In this document: piece after piece, positions 5,177 to 15,672 of the stretch
How the letters are laid out: each line of letters starts with the position of its first letter
How positions within the stretch are numbered: the stretch's first letter is position 1
Assembly: GCA_036258055.1 (NCBI GenBank)
Contig: DATAEK010000013.1
Coordinates: 1-41,564, forward strand
Reading direction: 5' to 3'
From: Vicinamibacterales bacterium
GTDB taxonomy: Bacteria; Acidobacteriota; Vicinamibacteria; Vicinamibacterales; 2-12-FULL-66-21
DNA length: 41,564 nt
Program-made: the position numbers and the translations under genes
Notes under the pieces: model-generated
Database searches by the model: none
The model's input: the letters and a program-made list of their open reading frames with translations, nothing else
Told to the model about the DNA's origin: nothing

Positions 5177-5874
5177 CCGAGGCGATACCTGAGGATGAGG
5201 GCGATCATCCTGAACCCGGTCGTCAACGTGCCCTTCAGGCTGCCGGTAATCTTCGACTCGCCGACGCGACCACGATAATTGACCGGCACCTCGATGATCT
5301 TCAGCTTTCGACGGAGGCCGAGGATCACCATCTCGGGCAGGAAATGCGAGCCGCCGACGGTGAGATCGCTGCGGATTCTTTCGAGCGGCGCGCGATGGAC
5401 CAGCCGCATCGTGCAGCCGCAATCGCTCAATGAGGGCCCGCCGTACAGAAACTGGATCAGCTTCGCGACCGTCCAGTTGCCAATCCGCAGGAACCACCCC
5501 ATGTTCGCCTGATCCCAGACGAGCTCGCGCGTGGTTCGCGTTCCGCACACCATGTCGAAGTCATCCGCGTAGGCCAGCAGCTTGTGGACGTCCCGTCCGA
5601 GGAACGTGCCGTCCGGTTCCGCCATGATGATGATGTCACCCGACGCATCCTGCAGGCCGCGGCGCAGCGCGTGCCCGTAGCCCTGCTGTGACTCGGACAC
5701 GACTCGCGCTGCCGTGGCCCGGGCTTCGACGGCGGTTCCGTCGTGCGAATTGTTGTCCACCACGAGCACCTCGTCCACGACGCCCGCGGCAAGAAAGTCC
5801 TCGACGGCGGCGCGGATGTACTTCTCCTCGTTGTAGGCGGGCAACACCACGCTGACGGTCTTCGAACCGTACAT
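5173..5874 (-). CDS. GT2 family glycosyltransferase (polyprenol-phosphate sugar synthase, DPM1/ArnC-like)
   Basis: 233 aa from the ATG at 5874. Motifs VSVVLPAYNEE, DNNSHDGT and EPDGT (DXD-like) with a C-terminal amphipathic/TM tail. The 421-aa ORF extending to 6438 overlaps the methyltransferase and is rejected. Confidence 0.8.
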   Translation of the reverse strand: MYGSKTVSVVLPAYNEEKYIRAAVEDFLAAGVVDEVLVVDNNSHDGTAVEARATAARVVSESQQGYGHALRRGLQDASGDIIIMAEPDGTFLGRDVHKLLAYADDFDMVCGTRTTRELVWDQANMGWFLRIGNWTVAKLIQFLYGGPSLSDCGCTMRLVHRAPLERIRSDLTVGGSHFLPEMVILGLRRKLKIIEVPVNYRGRVGESKITGSLKGTLTTGFRMIALILRYRLG

Positions 5875-5885
5875 GTCAGCTCGCG

Positions 5886-6554
5886 TCAGTCCTTCCGAGC
5901 GATCACGAGCATCTGGCCGGCGCGCGGTTTGATCGGAGAGTGCAGATACGCACGGACGAGCCACGGGGCAATCGGCCAGCGAGTCCCGCGCATCGAGTAG
6001 GGCAGAAAACGCGGCTCCACGCGATCGATTCGAAACCCACGCGACCGCAGCAGATTCGGCAGCGATACGTCGGTGAACACCGACCGATGCGTGTAGTCGT
6101 CGAAGTACTTCCGGTAAGCGTAGCGGAAGTTCGGTTGGATCACGAGCAGCCTGCCACCGCGTTTGAGCGCGGCCGCGACGCTGCCGACGAGCCCGGCGGC
6201 GGTGTCCGGGTCGAAGTGTTCGATCACGTTCGAGGCGAGCACCACGTCGAACGTGGCGGCGCCAAGCCGTCCGAGATCTCTCGACGCGTCGAGCTCCGTC
6301 GTTTCCACACCGCTCGCCGCATGCCCCCGGAACTCGGGCCAGGTGTCCACTGCGACGCGGCGCGCCGCGCGCACAGCATTGATCCAGCAGCAATAGCCTG
6401 CGCCGATCTCGAGCACGTGGCTTTGCGGGGGAATCCACTCCGACAGGTAATCCGCGATTACGCGCCAGACCACCGCGCGAGCGGGGTCCTCCGGCAGGTG
6501 CACCGCATGGTATCCGGTGCCGCGGACGTCACCCGCGGTCATGGCTGTTTCCAT
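5886..6554 (-). CDS. Class I SAM-dependent methyltransferase
   Basis: Motif I VLEIGAGYC and a post-I acidic residue, roughly 220 aa. The alternative ATG at 6542 would give an ATGA overlap with the epimerase stop. Confidence 0.7.
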   Translation of the reverse strand: METAMTAGDVRGTGYHAVHLPEDPARAVVWRVIADYLSEWIPPQSHVLEIGAGYCCWINAVRAARRVAVDTWPEFRGHAASGVETTELDASRDLGRLGAATFDVVLASNVIEHFDPDTAAGLVGSVAAALKRGGRLLVIQPNFRYAYRKYFDDYTHRSVFTDVSLPNLLRSRGFRIDRVEPRFLPYSMRGTRWPIAPWLVRAYLHSPIKPRAGQMLVIARKD

Positions 6555-7632: not shown

Positions 7633-8724
7633 TCAATTCCCCTGGCTCCAGATGATGATGAGGAACACGATGATCGCGAGCAGTACCAGCAGCATGATCT
7701 TCCACACGCTCTTCGGATAGTCGCCCGCCATTCGGCCGGTGTACCCGTTCACGACGACCTGGTACAGCTTCTGCCCGAAGTTGTACGTCAAGAGCCACAC
7801 CGGCACGAGGATGTGCTTGAACGTCTGACCTGAGAAGACCGGATGGATCTGCAGGTTTCGATACGTGTCGCCCGGCACCTGACCGGCAGCCATCTGCTCC
7901 AAGGCGCCCGTCATCGCCGCGCGCGATCGCTCCGCGGCCTCGAACAGCACCACCTGATAGTGCTCGACGACGAACCCTGACAGGTAGGCCGTCTGATACG
8001 GTACGAGTTCCGTGGTCGGAAACGGCTCGACTTGCGTCAACAGCGCAGTCGACACGCCCTGCGTACCGGGGATCGGCTGGTCGTCGAAGAAGTGCTGCAC
8101 CTCGCCCGACGCTGGTTCCCAGCGCGTGTGCCGGACCTGCCGCGTGCGCGTCTGCCCACCCTCGCGATAGGTCTCGGTGGTGTAGTAGTAGTGTCCGGCC
8201 TCGGCCTCCCACGGGCACACCGCCTGTGCATCGAACGTCCAGTACGGAATGTAGATGCCGTGGACACGATCGACGAGCGCGCGGGTCTTGAGCGCGCCCG
8301 GGGCAAGCCATTTGCTGGCGTACCATCGTCGAATCTGCTCGCGGACCTGCGCTTCCGTGACCTTGAAGGCCAGCAGGCTCTGCGGGCGGATTGGGGCCTT
8401 GATTTCCTTGTAGTCGACCAGCGCCGGCGATCCGCAGAACTCGCAGTTCTGGCCGACGCGTTCGGGGTCGAAGACCGAGACGGCCTTGCAGCTCTGGCAC
8501 TGGACCGTGCGTTTCTCGGTCAGCCATCCGCGCTCGTCGTCGGGCAGCTCGCGGAGCGCCTTCGCGAGATCGAGCTCCTGAATCGCGCCGGTCGTCGCGT
8601 CGACCGTAAAGGGCGTGGAGCTGCCGCAGAACGGGCAGATCAGCAGCTGCTTTGCGGGGTTCCACTCAGCCTGCGCGCCGCACGCGGCGCAGGGGTACTT
8701 GTCGAGCGCTGAGATGTCGGGCAT
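7633..8724 (-). CDS. Zinc-ribbon membrane-anchored protein (two CxxC...CxxC ribbons, central domain of unknown function, C-terminal TM helix)
   Basis: N-terminal CAACG...CPFCG and CQSC...CEFCG motifs and a C-terminal hydrophobic anchor (IMLLVLLAIIVFLIIIW). Lies 30 bp downstream of, and co-oriented with, the SPFH-HTH gene. Confidence 0.55.
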   Translation of the reverse strand: MPDISALDKYPCAACGAQAEWNPAKQLLICPFCGSSTPFTVDATTGAIQELDLAKALRELPDDERGWLTEKRTVQCQSCKAVSVFDPERVGQNCEFCGSPALVDYKEIKAPIRPQSLLAFKVTEAQVREQIRRWYASKWLAPGALKTRALVDRVHGIYIPYWTFDAQAVCPWEAEAGHYYYTTETYREGGQTRTRQVRHTRWEPASGEVQHFFDDQPIPGTQGVSTALLTQVEPFPTTELVPYQTAYLSGFVVEHYQVVLFEAAERSRAAMTGALEQMAAGQVPGDTYRNLQIHPVFSGQTFKHILVPVWLLTYNFGQKLYQVVVNGYTGRMAGDYPKSVWKIMLLVLLAIIVFLIIIWSQGN

Positions 8725-8753
8725 GCGGCGTCAGCGGGGGACCGGGGCCGCGC

Positions 8754-9800
8754 TCACTTCGCCAGGTACTCGTCGAGCGAGGCCCGCCTGACGCGGTACG
8801 AGGTTCCGATCTTCTTCGCCGCGAGCTCTCCGGATTCGATGATCGTCATCACGTCGGACTCGGGCACCCCCAGCGCTTTCGCGACATCCGCCGGTGACAG
8901 CAGATCTGGCAGCGTGACCGCCGCCGAGGCCGCCGACGCCGCGGCTGCGCCGGGCATCCCCTGCTGCTGCATGATCTGCTGGGCGATCGACAGGCCGACA
9001 GCCAGCTCGGTCGCGGCGCCGCCCGAGCCTCCGCCCTTCTCCATTCCCTGGGCCATTTGGAACTTCACGTAGTCGTTCAGATTGCCCACGGCCGCCATGC
9101 TCGATCGTTTGTCGATCGCCGTCTCCACTTCGGGTGGCACCGAAACGTTCTCGACGATGAAGCTGGCGACCTCGAGACCGTACTTCGCGAGCACCACCGG
9201 GTTGATGATCGGCAGCAGCGCCTCGCCAAGCTCGGTGTAGCGGCTTGCGACGTCGAACACCGGGATGTGGGCGGACGCGAGCGCGTCGGCGAAGATGCTG
9301 ACGATGCGCGAGCGCATCGTGTCGGCGAACTCGTCGAGGCGGAAGTTCTGATCGGAGCCCGCGACTTCCTTCAGGAACAGCTTCGGTTCCTTGATATGGA
9401 AGTCGTAGGTGCCAAACGCGCGCACGCGCACGATCCCGAGATCGTTGTCCCGCACCATGATCGGGTTGGCGGTCCCCCACTTGTTCCCCGTGAACAGCCG
9501 GGTGTTGAGGTAGTAGACGTCCGCCTTGAAGGGCGAGTTGAAGCCGTACTTCCAGGACTTCAGCTTGGTGAGGACCGGGATGTTGTCGGTCGTCAGCGTG
9601 TGTTTGCCGGGACCGAACGTGTCGCCGAACTCGCCGAGGTAGATGAACTGGACCTGCTGCGATTCGCGCACGATCAGCTGCGCGCCGTTCTTGATCGCCT
9701 TGTCGTCGTCCGGGTAGCGAAAAGAGAGCGTGTCGCGCGAGTCGTCGGTCCACTCGATGACGTCGATCAGCTCGCCCTTGATGAAATCCATCAGACCCAT
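8754..9800 (-). CDS. SPFH-superfamily protein of the COG4260 type (YdjI-like) with a C-terminal excisionase/MerR-type helix-turn-helix
   Basis: The N-terminal ~250 aa match the COG4260/SPFH family as recalled (MGLMDFIKGELIDVIEW..., YYLNTR, FRVRAFGTYDF). The C-terminus (ADVAKALGVPESDVMTIIESGELAAKKIGTSYRVRRASLDEYL) fits the excisionase-family HTH consensus. Confidence 0.7.
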   Translation of the reverse strand: MGLMDFIKGELIDVIEWTDDSRDTLSFRYPDDDKAIKNGAQLIVRESQQVQFIYLGEFGDTFGPGKHTLTTDNIPVLTKLKSWKYGFNSPFKADVYYLNTRLFTGNKWGTANPIMVRDNDLGIVRVRAFGTYDFHIKEPKLFLKEVAGSDQNFRLDEFADTMRSRIVSIFADALASAHIPVFDVASRYTELGEALLPIINPVVLAKYGLEVASFIVENVSVPPEVETAIDKRSSMAAVGNLNDYVKFQMAQGMEKGGGSGGAATELAVGLSIAQQIMQQQGMPGAAAASAASAAVTLPDLLSPADVAKALGVPESDVMTIIESGELAAKKIGTSYRVRRASLDEYLAK

Positions 9801-9878
9801 CGGCGTTCCCTCTCCAGAAATTCTGATACTGTACCGCGCGGGCGTGAAATCAGCTCAGCGTATTGTAGTCTCTCGCCG

Positions 9879-10598
9879 ATGCCTGACGCTTCTTCTTTGC
9901 ACTGCCCGAACTGCGGGGCGGCCGCTGACCCTGAGGCGCCGCGGTGCCCGTACTGCCACGCGAGCCTCGCCACTGTCAGCTGTCCATCGTGCTTTGAGCA
10001 GATATTCGACGGGGCCCTCTACTGTCCGAAGTGCGGGGCCCGGCGCGAGCGGACTGAGAACGAGGAGGCGCCGGTCTTCTGTCCCGGGTGCGCGAGCCCG
10101 ATGCGTCGGGTGGACGTCGGCGCGACGCCCCTGCTCGAATGCGCGACCTGCGACGGCGTCTGGGTCGATGCGGACGTCTTCGAGCGTCTGTGCGCAGATC
10201 AGGAGAGCCGGGCGGCGGTCCTCCATCAGCTCGAGCCACGGAGCCGGACATCGTCACAAGGCAACGTCCGCTACCGGAAATGCGTGCGCTGCGGGAAGAT
10301 GATGAACCGCGTGAACTTCGGCCGGTTGTCAGGCACGGTCGTGGACGTGTGCCGCGGCCACGGGACGTTCCTGGATGGCGGAGAGCTTCACCAGATTGCG
10401 GCGTTCATCCAGGCCGGCGGTCTCGAGCGCGCCCGTCAGCGGTCAATCGACGATCTGCGCGAGGAAGAACACCGGCTTCGAGACCTGGAAGCCCGCCAGG
10501 CACGACACGCGGCGGACTCTCACGGCGAGATCCTGCACCGGAGCACCTGGAACACCTCTGACCTGCTGGATCTACTGCAACGGCTGCGACGGTCGTGA
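9879..10598 (+). CDS. Multi-zinc-ribbon protein (N-terminal double zinc ribbon plus two zf-TFIIB-type domains)
   Basis: ATG at 9879, in frame within the longer ORF beginning at 9057. CPNCG...CPYC, CPSC...CPKCG, then two repeats of C-P/V-x-C-x-x-x-M...C-x-x-C/H-G-x-W/F-L/V-D-x-x-E-L characteristic of zf-TFIIB (PF13453)-like domains. Divergent from the SPFH-HTH gene. Confidence 0.6.
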   Translation: MPDASSLHCPNCGAAADPEAPRCPYCHASLATVSCPSCFEQIFDGALYCPKCGARRERTENEEAPVFCPGCASPMRRVDVGATPLLECATCDGVWVDADVFERLCADQESRAAVLHQLEPRSRTSSQGNVRYRKCVRCGKMMNRVNFGRLSGTVVDVCRGHGTFLDGGELHQIAAFIQAGGLERARQRSIDDLREEEHRLRDLEARQARHAADSHGEILHRSTWNTSDLLDLLQRLRRS

Positions 10599-10658: not shown

Positions 10659-10901
10659 CTACTGGCCGGGCGGCGTGTACTGCAGCGCCTTCTTGACTGC
10701 GGCATCCACCTCCTGCGGAGTCACGAGCACCGTCGTGGAAACGCGGACGGCTCCGGACGCGTTGGCCGCTAGCGCCAGAGCGCTCACGCTTGCGAGGTCG
10801 GGAGAATCGATGATCGTATACACGTCGTGCTCCCCGAGCGCGAAGTAGAAGGCGTCGAGCTTCGCCCCGACACTCTTCAATACTGTCTCGAGCGCCGCCA
10901 C
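10659..10901 (-). CDS. GYD domain protein
   Basis: 80-aa ORF whose size and composition (AFYFALGEHDVYTIIDSPD...) resemble GYD-family proteins as recalled. Confidence 0.4.
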   Translation of the reverse strand: MAALETVLKSVGAKLDAFYFALGEHDVYTIIDSPDLASVSALALAANASGAVRVSTTVLVTPQEVDAAVKKALQYTPPGQ

Positions 10902-10973: not shown

Positions 10974-12371
10974 ATGAAGCCGGCGATGCCCGTTCTGTGC
11001 GTGCTCCTCACCGTCACGACCACCGCAGCCTGGCCGGCTGCCGGTGAGGACCCGGGGACGACGACGCGCCCGCGCGCCGCTTCTGCGCCGCGAGTTCGCG
11101 AAGTCCGGTTCGAGGGGGATCCTGCGCTCGAACCCGACACGCTGAAGAAGGTGCTGAAGGAGCTCGAGATCCGGCGCGTGATTCCCGGCATCTGGACGCG
11201 ACGGCCGCGGTACGAGGCTCGCGCCGTCGAAGCGGATCTCGTGCGGCTCCGCTCGTTCTATGTCTCGCATGGCTACTTCGACGCGCGGGTCGGCCTCGGC
11301 GGCGTAACAGTCGATCGAGGCGAGGCGATCCTGACACTCGAGGTGCAGTCGGGCCTCAAGTACTCGGTGCGCCGCGTCGAGATCGATGGGATCGACGGTG
11401 AGCACGTGAAAACAGCGAGTGACTCGAGCGGTGAATTCCCCGCTGACGCGCTCTGCGCGTGCCTTCTCGATGCCAGACGAATCGCTGAATCACGCGGCCG
11501 GCTTGATTTCGCGGCGGAACTGGAGGTCTCGCACACCGATGCCTCGGCGCCGTCCGATACCAGCAGGACGTGGGTGGACGTCACCGCCCGCGTGCCGACG
11601 GGATCCGCGTATATGGTCGGCCGTATCAACTTCACGGGCCACCACCGGGTCAGCGAATCCACACTGCGCCGGGCGATGGTTCTGCAGGAGCGCTCGCTGT
11701 TCGATGTCGGAAAGCTCCGGCGCAGCCTCGCAAGACTGAATCGGTCCGGCTTGTTCGAGCCGCTCACGCTGCATGACGTCGAGGTCCGGAGGAATCCCGA
11801 CACGCTCACCGCCGATCTGACGATCGCCGTCCGCGAGCAGCTTGGCAGGAGGTGGTTGGTGTCCGGCCCGCTTGGACCTGCGGCCTTCGGCGGATCGCTG
11901 CAGGCCGCCATCTCGTCACGCCTGCCCCCGTGGGGCCGCGGTCTCTTCGAAGCCTCGACGTATTACCTGACGTTCAGTCTGATAGGGTTTTCGGCTCCGC
12001 TGGTCCGTCTGCTGCCGATTGGTGTACGACCCACTCCGCCAGCGTTGCTCGTCCTGGAGCGCCCCTACCTTCCGGGTCAGGCGCTGTTCTCAGGCTTCGC
12101 GCTCTCGCCGCAGCTTTCCGCGCGCACACTGCTGGCGGACTACGGGCTGACACATCTCGATTCCGCAATGCGGGCGGCGCTGTTCGGAGAACCGCCTGAC
12201 TCCTCGAGCCTGCTGATTCCGATATTGGGGCCTCACTCGAGCGGGGTCGCCGGCGGATCAGAAGAGGCCCGGCTCCTCATGTGCAATCCGCCGCCGCCGC
12301 GCCACCCGCGGCTGCGACGTGGAGCCGCGATCGCGGTCGATCAGGCGCTCCGCGCGTTTCGCCCTTTTTGA
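10974..12371 (+). CDS. POTRA-domain protein (BamA/FtsQ-like POTRA repeats, no full beta-barrel)
   Basis: Signal peptide, then POTRA-like repeats (VREVRFEGDPALEPDTLKKVLKEL; YSVRRVEIDGIDG; YMVGRINFTGHHRVSESTLRRAMVLQERSLFD). Only ~160 aa follow the last repeat, too short for a 16-strand barrel. Confidence 0.5.
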   Translation: MKPAMPVLCVLLTVTTTAAWPAAGEDPGTTTRPRAASAPRVREVRFEGDPALEPDTLKKVLKELEIRRVIPGIWTRRPRYEARAVEADLVRLRSFYVSHGYFDARVGLGGVTVDRGEAILTLEVQSGLKYSVRRVEIDGIDGEHVKTASDSSGEFPADALCACLLDARRIAESRGRLDFAAELEVSHTDASAPSDTSRTWVDVTARVPTGSAYMVGRINFTGHHRVSESTLRRAMVLQERSLFDVGKLRRSLARLNRSGLFEPLTLHDVEVRRNPDTLTADLTIAVREQLGRRWLVSGPLGPAAFGGSLQAAISSRLPPWGRGLFEASTYYLTFSLIGFSAPLVRLLPIGVRPTPPALLVLERPYLPGQALFSGFALSPQLSARTLLADYGLTHLDSAMRAALFGEPPDSSSLLIPILGPHSSGVAGGSEEARLLMCNPPPPRHPRLRRGAAIAVDQALRAFRPF

Positions 12372-12378
12372 GGTCAAC

Positions 12379-12798
12379 CTACGCGGAAGGCTCGAACTTC
12401 AGCGCAACGCCATTGATGCAGTAGCGCAGGCCGGTGGGCGGCGGACCGTCCGGGAACACGTGCCCGAGATGTCCTCCGCACCGGCTGCAGTGAACCTCGG
12501 TGCGCGTCATGAAGAAGCTCCGATCGGTCGTCGTCCCGAGCGCACCGTCAAGCGGCGAGAAAAAGCTCGGCCATCCTGTGCCGCTCTCGAACTTCTTATC
12601 CGCGATGAAAAGCGGCTGCCCGCACGCAACGCACGCAAACGTGCCGGGACGATGTTCGTTCAGCAGCGCGCATGACCCCGGACGTTCCGTGCCGTGGCCG
12701 CGCATCACGTCGTACTGCTCGGGTGTCAGGATTTTCCGCCACTCTTCTTCCGATTTCACGACCTCGAACTGGGTTGCCTTGTCCGTCATGCCAGTCAA
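12379..12798 (-). CDS. msrB: Peptide-methionine (R)-S-oxide reductase MsrB
   Basis: Two CxxC zinc motifs (CVACG / CSRCGGHLGHVF) and the catalytic RYCINGVAL motif, in 139 aa. Confidence 0.9.
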   Translation of the reverse strand: MTGMTDKATQFEVVKSEEEWRKILTPEQYDVMRGHGTERPGSCALLNEHRPGTFACVACGQPLFIADKKFESGTGWPSFFSPLDGALGTTTDRSFFMTRTEVHCSRCGGHLGHVFPDGPPPTGLRYCINGVALKFEPSA

Positions 12799-12826
12799 AA
12801 CCCCTCGTGTCTAACCGTTGTTCCCG

Positions 12827-13633
12827 CTATTTCTCGGTCGTCTGCTTGGCGATTTCGAGCACGTCGGCGGCCGGCAGGATCACTGGCAGCAGGCCGAGCG
12901 CTTCGGTGCCGCCCATGAGGGCCATCATGCTGGACCGGCCGGCATCGATCTGCCGGAGCGTCAGGAGGCCAATGACCTTGCCGCTGAGCGTGAACGCGGG
13001 CGTCCCCATGCTGGCGCTGGTGCTCCCCAGGACGAAGAACGTCCGTGGCTTCTCGATGATCGCGCCGATCTCCTGAATCGATGCGCCGGCGGCCCACCCG
13101 CCGACGCGCCCGAGCCGCGAGAGCACGAGCACTTCATCGAGCAGTGCTGGTTTCGCGGCGTCGGCGAGATTGATCGCGACGAGCGGCGTCGACGGCGTCG
13201 TCGTCGGACTGATGAAGGCCAGGTCGAGATCTTCGTCGCGCAGCGTGATCTTCGCGGGCAGCTCCCGGCCGTCGGACAGGCGGATTTTCAGGTCCGTCGG
13301 CTCGCTCGTCACTTCCATCTTGTTCTCGCCGGTGCCGCCGGCGCCCATCATCCGGTTGATCATCGCGCCCGGGTTCAGCGCACCCAGCGACAACACGGTC
13401 AGACCGGACGGATCGATCACCGTGCCGACGGTGTCGACCGAGTCGTCGGAGGACTGCATCTCGCGGCCGCCAACAGCCATGCGCGTCTTCAACACCACCC
13501 GGACGTTGACGACCGCAGCCTGCCATTTCTTGACGATGTCGCGTGCAGCCGTGCGCGAGGCATCCTGATCCGCGGACGGACGAACCACCATGACGAGCGC
13601 GAGCGCGACGACTGCGAGCGAGCGAAAAGCCAT
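12827..13633 (-). CDS. Secreted trypsin-fold (S1C/HtrA-like) protein, apparently lacking the catalytic His (possible pseudo-protease)
   Basis: Start at the ATG at 13633, preceded by SD GAGGA with an 8-nt spacer. Signal peptide, then the HtrA-like beta-barrel pattern (VVNVRV..., DLDLAFI) but with no His in the expected TNxHV position. Sits immediately downstream of htrA. Confidence 0.4.
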   Translation of the reverse strand: MAFRSLAVVALALVMVVRPSADQDASRTAARDIVKKWQAAVVNVRVVLKTRMAVGGREMQSSDDSVDTVGTVIDPSGLTVLSLGALNPGAMINRMMGAGGTGENKMEVTSEPTDLKIRLSDGRELPAKITLRDEDLDLAFISPTTTPSTPLVAINLADAAKPALLDEVLVLSRLGRVGGWAAGASIQEIGAIIEKPRTFFVLGSTSASMGTPAFTLSGKVIGLLTLRQIDAGRSSMMALMGGTEALGLLPVILPAADVLEIAKQTTEK

Positions 13634-13644
13634 ACTGCGGTTCC

Positions 13645-15672
13645 TCATTCCTGTTGTTTCCAACCAGCCTGCATCTCGACGAAGAAGGTGCGAATGCCCC
13701 GCTTCACTCTGAACACGACGGTCGGCGGGTGTGCGGCGGCGATCTTCGTCATCTTCGCCTGAACGGCCGCAACATCCTGCACCGCCTCACCGTCTACCGC
13801 CAGCAGCAAATCGCCGACGGCCAGATGCGCCAGAGCGGCCCATCCGCCTTCGCGTACCGCGTCGACGAGCACCCCCGACTGATCGGGGTCGATCCCTTCT
13901 TCGAGGCGATCCGCGGCGGCGATGTCGCGGACCCGGAACTCGAAGTTGGGATCTTCGTACTTCTTCATCTCGCGCGGCAGCCGCGGAGAGGTTTCGAGCG
14001 CAACCTTGATCTTCTGCGGCGTCTTGCCGCGGATAATCGACAGCTCGACGTTCGTCCCGGTTTTGTATTGGCGGATCATGGTCGCGAACAGGTCCGCGTC
14101 GGACGGCTGCGACGCCTGCACGGGATCGCCATCCACGGCCGTGATGATGTCGCCGACTTGCAGGCCTGCCTTCGCTGCCGAGCCAGGCAGCACGCGCGTG
14201 ACCCTGACCCCGGAAGTGTCGGACAGCCCGAGCTTGTCGGCAAGTTCACGCGTCAGCACCTGCACGGAAATCGGGATCCACGCCTTCCGCGCCTCGAGAC
14301 CCGGATCTTCCAACCCCGGCCGTCCGATCTCGACGACGGTCAGCAGACGCTCGCCGGAGCGTTCGAACGAGACGAGCGCGTCAGCGTGACTGTTTCCGTT
14401 CTGGACGAGGTGGTCGAGCGCTGAGGTCAACCCTTCGAGCGTCTTCACCGGCGTGTCATCGACGCCGACGATGATGTCGTCTTCGCGCAGCGCGGGCTTG
14501 GCATCGTCCGCCGGGCCGCCGGACCGGACGCCGCGGACGCGCACGCCGTCGCGGGTCTTCCGATTGAGCTCCTTCGACGACCAGGCCGTCAGGTTCGATC
14601 CCGTGATGCCGAGCGTCGCAAGCTCGTGGATGGGCGCTTCGACGCTCTCGCGTTCAACCGGCGTGACCGTCAGCGTTTGCTCGACGCCGTTGCGGACCAC
14701 GGTTGCCGTCACGGGCTGTCGGAGCGGGAGCCGCATCACCATCTGGTTGAAGAGCGGGACCTCCTCGGCGAACCGGACGGTCACGTCGTGCGAACCGATC
14801 GACAGGAGGACGTCTCCGGACGCGAAGCCGGCTTTCTCGGCCGGCGACCCTTCGATCGTGCCGCCGACGAGACCGCCCTTCTCTCCTTTGTACGATTTCA
14901 GGAGTGGCTGCACCTCGAGTCCGATCCAACTGCGCTTGACGCGACCGTCCTTGATGATCGCCTCGGCTACCTCCCGAGCGAGGTCGGCAGGAATCGCACC
15001 CGCAAGGCCCAGGCTGATCTCGTTGACGCCCACGATCTCGCCTTGCATGTTCACGAGCGGACCGCCGGAGTTCCCTCCGAAGATCGGTGCGTCGTGGCCA
15101 ATCCAGCGGACGATCGAGCCGACGTCTTCTCCGTCGAGCGTCATGCGGTTGAAGGGCCAGAACATGCCGGGCATGATCATCTCGGTGTTGCTGACGATCC
15201 CCATCGTGACCGACTGCGAAAGGGCAAGCGGACTGCCGAGCGCGAGGACACGCTCACCCACTTTGAGCTTGCTCACGTCACCAAAGTGTGCCGCAGGGAA
15301 CGTCCGCGGGCTCGATGGCCGCAGCTTGAGGATCGCGATGTCCGACAGCGGATCGGTTCCGACGAGATCGGCGGGGACTTCCTCACGGCTCGCGAGGGTG
15401 CAGAAGATCGCCCGCGTCCGCCCGGCCACGTGATGATTCGTGAGGACGTGTCCCTCCGGCGTGATGATGGTGCCGCTGCCCGCTGCCTCGCGTTTGAGCT
15501 CGCGCCCTTCCTGCTGGTCCACCATCACCACGTGAATCCGGACGAGGGAGGGAGCAACCTTGGAGAGCGCGGCATCGACCGCGGCGGTCTGGCCGGGCGC
15601 CGTTCCCGGCTGCCCCGCCGCCACCACACCCACCGACAAGAGAATGAAAAGGACGGACGCTCTGACGTGCAT
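13645..15672 (-). CDS. HtrA/DegP-family periplasmic serine endoprotease with multiple PDZ domains
   Basis: Signal peptide and catalytic triad motifs (TNHHVAG, DIAILKL, GGNSGGPLVN), followed by about three PDZ-like domains (GLEVQPL..., GVRVRGV..., GVRVTRVLPGSAAKAGLQVGDII). Confidence 0.85.
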   Translation of the reverse strand: MHVRASVLFILLSVGVVAAGQPGTAPGQTAAVDAALSKVAPSLVRIHVVMVDQQEGRELKREAAGSGTIITPEGHVLTNHHVAGRTRAIFCTLASREEVPADLVGTDPLSDIAILKLRPSSPRTFPAAHFGDVSKLKVGERVLALGSPLALSQSVTMGIVSNTEMIMPGMFWPFNRMTLDGEDVGSIVRWIGHDAPIFGGNSGGPLVNMQGEIVGVNEISLGLAGAIPADLAREVAEAIIKDGRVKRSWIGLEVQPLLKSYKGEKGGLVGGTIEGSPAEKAGFASGDVLLSIGSHDVTVRFAEEVPLFNQMVMRLPLRQPVTATVVRNGVEQTLTVTPVERESVEAPIHELATLGITGSNLTAWSSKELNRKTRDGVRVRGVRSGGPADDAKPALREDDIIVGVDDTPVKTLEGLTSALDHLVQNGNSHADALVSFERSGERLLTVVEIGRPGLEDPGLEARKAWIPISVQVLTRELADKLGLSDTSGVRVTRVLPGSAAKAGLQVGDIITAVDGDPVQASQPSDADLFATMIRQYKTGTNVELSIIRGKTPQKIKVALETSPRLPREMKKYEDPNFEFRVRDIAAADRLEEGIDPDQSGVLVDAVREGGWAALAHLAVGDLLLAVDGEAVQDVAAVQAKMTKIAAAHPPTVVFRVKRGIRTFFVEMQAGWKQQE

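Follow-up and report, generated by a model that had tools for sequence, protein, structure and literature searches.

A window of 41,564 nucleotides from a Vicinamibacterales bacterium of the phylum Acidobacteriota (GenBank assembly GCA_036258055.1, contig DATAEK010000013.1, positions 1 to 41,564) carries a conserved pair of genes that encode a soluble SPFH-domain protein fused to an excisionase-type helix-turn-helix (HTH) and, directly downstream, a tail-anchored zinc-ribbon protein. The pair probably forms a two-gene sub-membrane scaffold of the SamI/SamG type (YdjI/YdjG in Bacillus), in which the HTH would serve as a non-canonical adaptor or output head. An earlier reading made from the letters of the window alone, hereafter the original prediction, had described a three-gene module that also included a divergently transcribed multi-zinc-ribbon gene. 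The conserved module is a pair and not a triplet, because the anchor gene follows the SPFH-HTH gene near-universally, while the divergent gene is adjacent to it in only one clade.

The SPFH-HTH gene (8754-9800, minus strand, 348 aa) is separated from the YdjG/SamG-type anchor gene (7633-8724, minus strand, 363 aa) by a spacer of 29 nt (8725-8753) that has no terminator-like site; in orthologous loci the corresponding spacer spans roughly 0-300 nt, with a single case of 652 nt. The divergent gene (9879-10598, plus strand, 239 aa), whose start is an internal ATG within a longer mechanical open reading frame (ORF), lies across a gap of 78 nt (9801-9878). All three ORFs were found where the original prediction had placed them, as was the 78-bp intergenic region, and all three are real genes, given their protein-level conservation in many genomes.

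The fusion itself, which had first been read from the letters alone, is borne out by domain models at both ends of the protein, each above its Pfam cut-off. Band_7_1 (PF13421) matches residues 27-236 at 4.3e-80 (268.7 bits against a cut-off of 24; 9093-9722, minus strand, an extent given by Pfam and the alignment together), and HTH_17 (PF12728) matches residues 300-348 at 3.6e-11 (43.6 bits against a cut-off of 27; 8757-8903, minus strand), where the NCBIfam model ‘excise’ (TIGR01764) also scores above its cut-off, at 2.6e-9. Between them, residues 237-299 (8904-9092, minus strand) comprise, by alignment, a post-SPFH helix, a Gly-rich loop, a Q/A-rich helix and a variable Ala/Pro-rich tether, a layout common to YdjI and to GYF-type and SHOCT-type relatives. 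Among 79 orthologues, 30-residue blocks of the SPFH domain agree with the window residue at 81-94% on average and block 271-300 at 57%, the tether varying in both length and sequence. The protein is predicted to be soluble and to have no membrane anchor of its own: it contains zero cysteines, and no segment has transmembrane (TM)-like hydropathy (the maximum KD19, 1.54, falls inside the SPFH domain). Identity in the SPFH half stands at about 70% for Verrucomicrobiota and for Betaproteobacteria, and the copy on a 373-kb Comamonas plasmid reaches 61%; such unusually high conservation across phyla suggests horizontal spread of the two-gene cassette.

The partner protein was correctly recognized in the original prediction as a zinc-ribbon protein with a C-terminal TM anchor. 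Its four CxxC pairs make two four-cysteine ribbons that show little or no variation among 75 homologues: in ribbon 1 (C12, C15, C30, C33; 8626-8691, minus strand) C30 and C33 are invariant and C12 and C15 are kept in at least 90% of the homologues, and ribbon 2 (C76, C79, C94, C97; 8434-8499, minus strand) is invariant. Pfam returned only sub-threshold ribbon matches for this protein and nothing for residues ~110-335, a core domain of long beta-hairpins (7720-8397, minus strand) that has no Pfam model and bears a weak PepSY/YpeB/NTF2-like resemblance. A single hydrophobic helix at residues 340-362 (7639-7707, minus strand; KD19 = 3.17, modelled as a helix) forms the tail anchor; the hydrophobic run stops at W359, and a single residue, N, follows position 362. 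The AlphaFold model of the protein (pLDDT 93, pTM 0.88) contains two ribbons, two helices, very long beta-hairpins and the terminal TM helix, and a Foldseek search of it against the PDB gave nothing significant. A likeness to pore toxins was considered and set aside, as it reflects the long hairpins only (Foldseek E > 0.07, TM-score ~0.1). With the TM helix at the very C-terminal end, and with cysteine ribbons that require a cytoplasmic setting, the entire body of the anchor protein would face the cytoplasm.

The kinship to which the original prediction had pointed, with the Bacillus pspA-ydjGHI neighbourhood (the PspA-SamGHI envelope-stress module), holds on direct comparison. A B. subtilis-type contig carrying pspA-ydjG-ydjH-ydjI was retrieved by means of a 24-mer from a published ydjG cloning primer (PMC8581546), and both termini of the retrieved YdjG agree with the published primers. 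The anchor aligns with this YdjG by BLASTP at 1e-34 (23% identity, 320 residues), and a profile of 75 diverse anchor homologues aligns with it in hhalign at a probability of 100% (E 1.4e-49, 317 columns); the SPFH-HTH protein aligns with YdjI at 30% identity over 270 aa (BLASTP, 5e-34), from the N-terminus to just beyond the SPFH domain, and the alignment ends where the C-terminal modules diverge. The anchor is thus a full-length YdjG/SamG homologue and the SPFH part a YdjI/SamI homologue. Both systems combine a soluble Band_7_1 SPFH protein bearing a low-complexity tether (YdjI/SamI) with a co-encoded partner that has two zinc ribbons, a YpeB-like core and a TM helix (YdjG/SamG). The window anchor shows every one of these traits, with its ribbons N-terminal, its YpeB-related/NTF2-like domain central and its TM helix C-terminal; the window SPFH protein shares with YdjI/SamI the Band_7_1 domain, the lack of an anchor, the tether and the YdjG-type partner, and differs in carrying HTH_17 where SamI has a C-terminal zinc finger (Zn_ribbon_3 plus DZR in YdjI).

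Other differences from the Bacillus system concern the locus. The window order is SPFH gene and then anchor, in contrast to the order G-H-I in Bacillus; the window promoter looks housekeeping-type (-10 TAnAAT) and is not demonstrably of the extracytoplasmic function (ECF)/sigma-W kind; and neither PspA nor the TPM-domain protein YdjH was found. No PspA/IM30 or TPM/YdjH domain was detected by Pfam in the ten neighbouring genes, and a tblastn search of low sensitivity with B. subtilis PspA and YdjH gave no match to the window or to any of 80 related loci. The absence of PspA asserted by the original prediction thus stands for the locus, as judged by tblastn and by Pfam of those ten genes only. 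The window protein shares the SPFH fold, and probably an oligomeric sub-membrane assembly, with the classical membrane-anchored cages HflK/C, QmcA and FloA/FloT. Unlike these, it has no intrinsic TM segment or hairpin, no long coiled coil and no flotillin domain, and the membrane link of its system comes from a separate tail-anchored protein.

The SPFH-HTH fusion is recurrent, a point on which the original prediction had called for a check. More than 8000 clusters at 90% identity match it, with the same domains in 120 of the 120 listed; at least 549 matching stretches occur in a one-genome-per-species collection; and the NCBI annotation “SPFH and helix-turn-helix domain-containing protein” is already in use. 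Neighbourhoods were counted in 80 fetched loci out of the at least 549 matching stretches, the anchor being located by tblastn, and an anchor gene lies directly downstream of the SPFH-HTH gene in about 73 of the 77 loci that were informative, that is, whose contig reaches far enough. The SPFH-anchor pair occurs together in at least nine phyla, and the paired loci include Acidobacteriota, Verrucomicrobiota (Haloferula), a metagenome-assembled genome (MAG) of Gemmatimonadota, a betaproteobacterial MAG and a plasmid of a cultured Comamonas. Haloferula luteola shares with the window the pair only, which is flanked there by a transporter gene and trmD.

The expected co-location of three genes therefore held for the SPFH-HTH gene and its anchor, and failed for the divergent gene. 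On a neighbour-joining tree of the SPFH proteins the divergent gene is adjacent in a single Vicinamibacterales clade, where it is missing from about ten loci in which SPFH, anchor and msrB are still in place, and it is absent beside the Verrucomicrobiota, Gemmatimonadota, proteobacterial and other acidobacterial pairs. Its family is also smaller and faster-evolving: only 1356 clusters, with 58-65% identity in relatives whose SPFH proteins are 84-92% identical. Pfam does find in its protein, which is predicted to be soluble, the domains that had been proposed, namely DZR (4.6e-10) and two stretches of Zn_ribbon_TFIIB (PF13453, 4.2e-11). A true three-gene module, in which the divergent protein would act as a partner, for example by supplying zinc ribbons in trans, and would be co-regulated through the 78-bp region, has two points in its favour: the divergent arrangement is retained in about 35 loci, including the lineage of loci L068 and L070, which have no adjacent anchor, and the -10-like hexamer TACAAT of the SPFH operon (9862-9867, minus strand, 67 nt upstream of the SPFH start codon) sits 12 nt from the divergent ATG (window 9862-9881). 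It follows that the divergent coding sequence takes in the upstream half of the SPFH promoter and that the two transcription units, promoters included, must overlap. Given the confinement of the gene to one clade and its repeated loss there, we nevertheless judge a three-gene module improbable, and the divergent gene is a lineage-specific neighbour and no component of the core. The start codons of the SPFH-HTH and divergent genes have a common context, CGCCGATG.

The anchor belongs to a still wider family, with 6831 representatives at 50% clustering and full-length matches down to 30% identity in an exhaustive phmmer search. When ten distant representatives were sampled, four were paired with or fused to an SPFH gene: in locus L081 (Fusobacteriota) a Band_7_1 gene with a zinc-ribbon tail lies directly upstream of the anchor, in L085 and L086 this place is taken by a Band_7_1 gene whose tail is GYF_2, and in L084 the representative P0360 is a single polypeptide with SPFH at residues 15-203 and a YdjG-like anchor at residues 218-559, near which a Band_7_1-SHOCT gene is found. 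SHOCT is most often fused to PF13421 (PMC3581485). In a collection of plasmids and chromids, a Band_7_1 gene stands immediately upstream of the anchor in all 12 matches (Comamonas odontotermitis, five Paracoccus, Pseudorhodobacter, three Vibrio, Tsukamurella and Enterococcus gallinarum), and the SPFH identity to the window protein is 44-47% in the Vibrio, Paracoccus, Pseudorhodobacter and Gemmatirosa plasmid matches. The head varies among these pairs: it is HTH_17 in Comamonas odontotermitis (where the partner is annotated “TFIIB-type zinc ribbon-containing protein”), GYF_2 in the scanned representatives Paracoccus ferrooxidans, Vibrio coralliilyticus and Tsukamurella, and a double zinc ribbon in Enterococcus gallinarum, where a TPM (YdjH-like) gene comes after the pair and PspA is absent.

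Across these proteins the alignment displays one plan: after the SPFH domain come a conserved helix, a loop rich in Gly, a helix rich in Q/M/A, an Ala/Pro tether that varies and finally a lineage-specific terminal module. The window pair matches the pairs with GYF_2, SHOCT or zinc-ribbon heads in its two-gene cassette and in its SPFH-tether-small-head plan, and differs from them in its HTH_17 head. Since relatives carry a zinc ribbon, GYF_2 or SHOCT at the HTH position, the head is swappable, and HTH_17 is one of several interchangeable heads.

Some members of the wider family have other neighbours. On Paracoccus ferrooxidans pFER4 (locus L094, 2719-7437), genes for a TelA-like ‘toxic anion resistance protein’ and a DUF2927 protein precede the Band_7_1-GYF_2/anchor pair on the same strand, an array that is possibly a larger stress operon. 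In L091 (3501-4688) a YdjG-like gene without an SPFH partner lies beside an nSTAND1-WD40 NTPase gene, some 1.5 kb beyond which an N6_Mtase/Eco57I-type gene follows, and in L089 (3501-4616) another such partnerless gene lies beside a SLFN_AlbA_2 gene; both contexts are reminiscent of conflict systems.

What the HTH head does is the question on which the readings of the pair divide. The original prediction called it a textbook DNA-binding domain, a view that stands as regards the models, whose thresholds are passed, and falters on the recognition helix, which is conserved as acidic. AlphaFold2 (AF2) predicts a winged HTH (wHTH) of beta-alpha-alpha-beta-beta-alpha topology with a pLDDT of 72-86; the remainder of that model is poor (44.5 overall, from a shallow input alignment of 84-91% identity), and it is usable only in the head. 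Helix 2 is the usual recognition helix in such domains, and here it reads PESDVMTIIESGE, with a charge of -4; the wing carries +5 and the whole domain 0, and the net charge ranges from -2 to +1 in 79 orthologues. Across the family head residue E18 is nearly invariant and D20 is invariant, and the basic wing, KKIG..YR.+R, is conserved. A phmmer search of the head against the PDB had no matches, and a profile search found only the mycobacteriophage Pukovnik Xis Gp37 (PDB 4j2n; E 0.0085), with which the head has HTH_17 membership, the fold and a basic wing in common. Unlike Gp37, which has STKTVRNYIAAGK at helix 2 and a net charge of +4 (counted over the aligned stretch), the window head has a helix 2 that is acidic and hydrophobic (SExDVMxIIESG) and a net charge of 0, and so has neither a basic or polar recognition helix nor a positively charged domain; unlike excisionases, moreover, it is fused to a scaffold protein and has no integrase or att context.

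The upstream region is likewise poor in the marks of an operator. A TAnAAT hexamer (consensus cTAGAATA) lies at -110 to -25 in 45 of 78 loci, compared with 3% in shuffled sequences, and these upstream regions show no conserved -35 element, palindrome or repeat. In the window, no meaningful repeats were found in 9700-10000, and a scan for the sigma-70 consensus returned no full promoter (its single terminator-like match is irrelevant). A housekeeping-type -10 promoter seems to drive the SPFH-anchor operon. An autoregulatory operator was sought and rejected, as only the -10 box is conserved. Five loci (L003, L012, L025, L067 and L074) have differing short tandem repeats downstream of the -10 box, in the stretch that leads up to the SPFH start codon; the units include ACTTCAA-like, AAAAGGG, GAACCCGC and CCCCAAG, in the 160 nt upstream of the start (locus coordinates ~5840-6000), and the window has no such repeats.

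Because helix 2 is acidic, the net charge is zero and no operator is conserved, canonical DNA binding is doubtful and canonical operator reading by the head is unlikely. The rival that turns on this point holds that the protein is a membrane-sequestered transcription factor or nucleoid tether, whose HTH binds DNA and is released or re-oriented by membrane stress, giving a direct transcriptional output in a one-protein analogue of the PspA-PspF or HAAS-PadR logic. It can call on the HTH_17 and TIGR01764 matches, on the predicted wHTH fold and on the conserved basic wing; loss of SamI in B. subtilis leads to global transcriptional changes; other envelope-stress systems couple sub-membrane domains to HTH domains, for example DUF2089 (ZnR-HTH-SHOCT) and HAAS-PadR (PMC11237479); and the zinc ribbons of YdjI at the HTH position could also bind nucleic acid. 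It has to contend, besides the charge and conservation of helix 2, with the lack there of basic or aromatic readers, with upstream regions devoid of any conserved palindrome or repeat, and with the presence at the same position in relatives of GYF_2 and SHOCT, neither of which is a DNA reader. We therefore hold this explanation to be unlikely, if worth serious attention, and it is doubtful, too, that the wHTH copies use the basic wing to bind DNA, or take hold of a partner already bound to DNA, so as to turn membrane state into a transcriptional or nucleoid-positioning output. Most likely the head would dock a protein or another non-canonical ligand rather than an operator, which is favoured because helix 2 is conserved as acidic and the domain is uncharged.

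The original prediction had also entertained a toxin-control or defence-like function, and the excisionase-type head raises the related idea of a mobile-element remnant with a fused excisionase. Several observations point that way: JGI annotates ‘excisionase family DNA binding protein’, PHROG 66 (excisionase) gives a domain-level match at 2.7e-6, the pair has moved between phyla and is present on the Comamonas plasmid, and genes of nSTAND/WD40, methyltransferase or SLFN_AlbA_2 type adjoin some of the distant YdjG-like genes. The PADLOC and PHROGs matches are domain-level noise only, however (best PADLOC E-values 0.0086-0.065), and there is no toxin or nuclease domain in the pair. The setting also argues against mobility: a tRNA scan of the window gave no matches, its base composition is even, no integrase or phage-like gene was found among ten Pfam-scanned neighbours within about 6 kb, the flanks are housekeeping genes (glycosyltransferase, epimerase, msrB, HtrA-type), and within Vicinamibacterales the locus keeps its syntenic position and the gene tree points to largely vertical descent. 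On these grounds it is very improbable that the pair is a cassette for anti-phage defence or of the toxin-antitoxin kind, or the remnant of a mobile element, and the defence reading is largely refuted.

Pfam assigns the ten neighbours to glycosyltransferase, methyltransferase, epimerase, GYD, POTRA, MsrB and HtrA-like families. An Rfam scan of the window returned nothing. The 80-aa GYD-domain ORF at 10659-10901 (minus strand) covers only positions 25-91 of the 91-position Pfam model, and may have its real start elsewhere or be a truncated gene. A 465-aa ORF at 10974-12371 (plus strand) has POTRA repeats, with no beta-barrel family detected at E <= 1e-5. Adjoining the module at 12379-15672 (minus strand) are genes for MsrB and for two trypsin-like proteases, of which one has PDZ domains; they plausibly serve the envelope or the quality control of proteins, and the msrB adjacency is kept only within the close Vicinamibacterales clade.

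From the pair, its conservation and its Bacillus relatives we hypothesize the following mechanism. The tail-anchored YdjG homologue would recruit an SPFH oligomer to the inner face of the membrane, a step proposed because of the homology, the coupling of the two genes across phyla and the natural fusion P0360. In B. subtilis, YdjG and YdjH are needed for the membrane localisation of soluble YdjI, which in turn recruits PspA (PMC8581546); SamI forms higher oligomers there, and it restrains SamGH signalling, its loss bringing global transcription changes that resemble chronic stress (bioRxiv 10.64898/2026.02.06.704340). By analogy with these genetics, the SPFH-anchor complex may organise or restrain a membrane-stress function. 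The wHTH heads, on low-complexity tethers of about 60 residues, would be displayed in many copies on the scaffold and would act as multivalent adaptor or output modules, and the pair would work without an adjacent PspA or TPM/YdjH protein. Physical interaction, oligomerisation, membrane recruitment and the head ligand are in this scheme all things that we infer.

Several points weigh against the scaffold reading. In two-hybrid assays in B. subtilis, YdjI bound YdjH and not demonstrably YdjG (PMC8581546), and no YdjH/TPM gene was found at the window locus, so that the anchor is presumed to recruit its partner unaided. PspA and YdjH were sought by tblastn and by Pfam of the ten neighbouring genes, and copies may exist elsewhere in the genome. 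Loci L068 and L070 have the SPFH-HTH gene and the divergent gene without an adjacent anchor, and six of the ten distant YdjG-like genes have no SPFH neighbour. The AF2 model has neither the oligomeric state nor the placement of the head within its scope. Finally, the head passes the HTH_17 and TIGR01764 cut-offs and keeps its basic wing, features that are compatible with DNA binding.

No paper was found in the literature on an SPFH-HTH (excisionase) protein or on PspA-free SPFH-YdjG pairs. The component families are known and the fusion has been named by automated annotation; the system is a variant without PspA in which an HTH replaces the zinc-finger tail. How SPFH scaffolds act is a general question, and SamGHI has only recently been tied to stress signalling in Bacillus. 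The mobile evolutionary core of SamGHI is the SPFH-YdjG pair, to which PspA and the TPM protein appear optional, and the large anchor family (6831 representatives) has a core domain lacking both a Pfam model and a solved structural relative. Soil Acidobacteriota hold the HTH version in abundance, and its conservation is unusual (about 70% identity across phyla); cultured hosts such as Comamonas odontotermitis WLL (proteins WP_224153175 and WP_224153207) and Haloferula luteola make the role of the head and recruitment by the anchor directly testable. If the heads did, against our expectation, turn membrane state into a transcriptional or nucleoid-positioning output, the pair would provide a route from the membrane to transcription or the nucleoid that needs no kinase, sigma factor or PspF-like ATPase, a route previously undescribed for SPFH scaffolds and one that would be present in thousands of soil bacteria.

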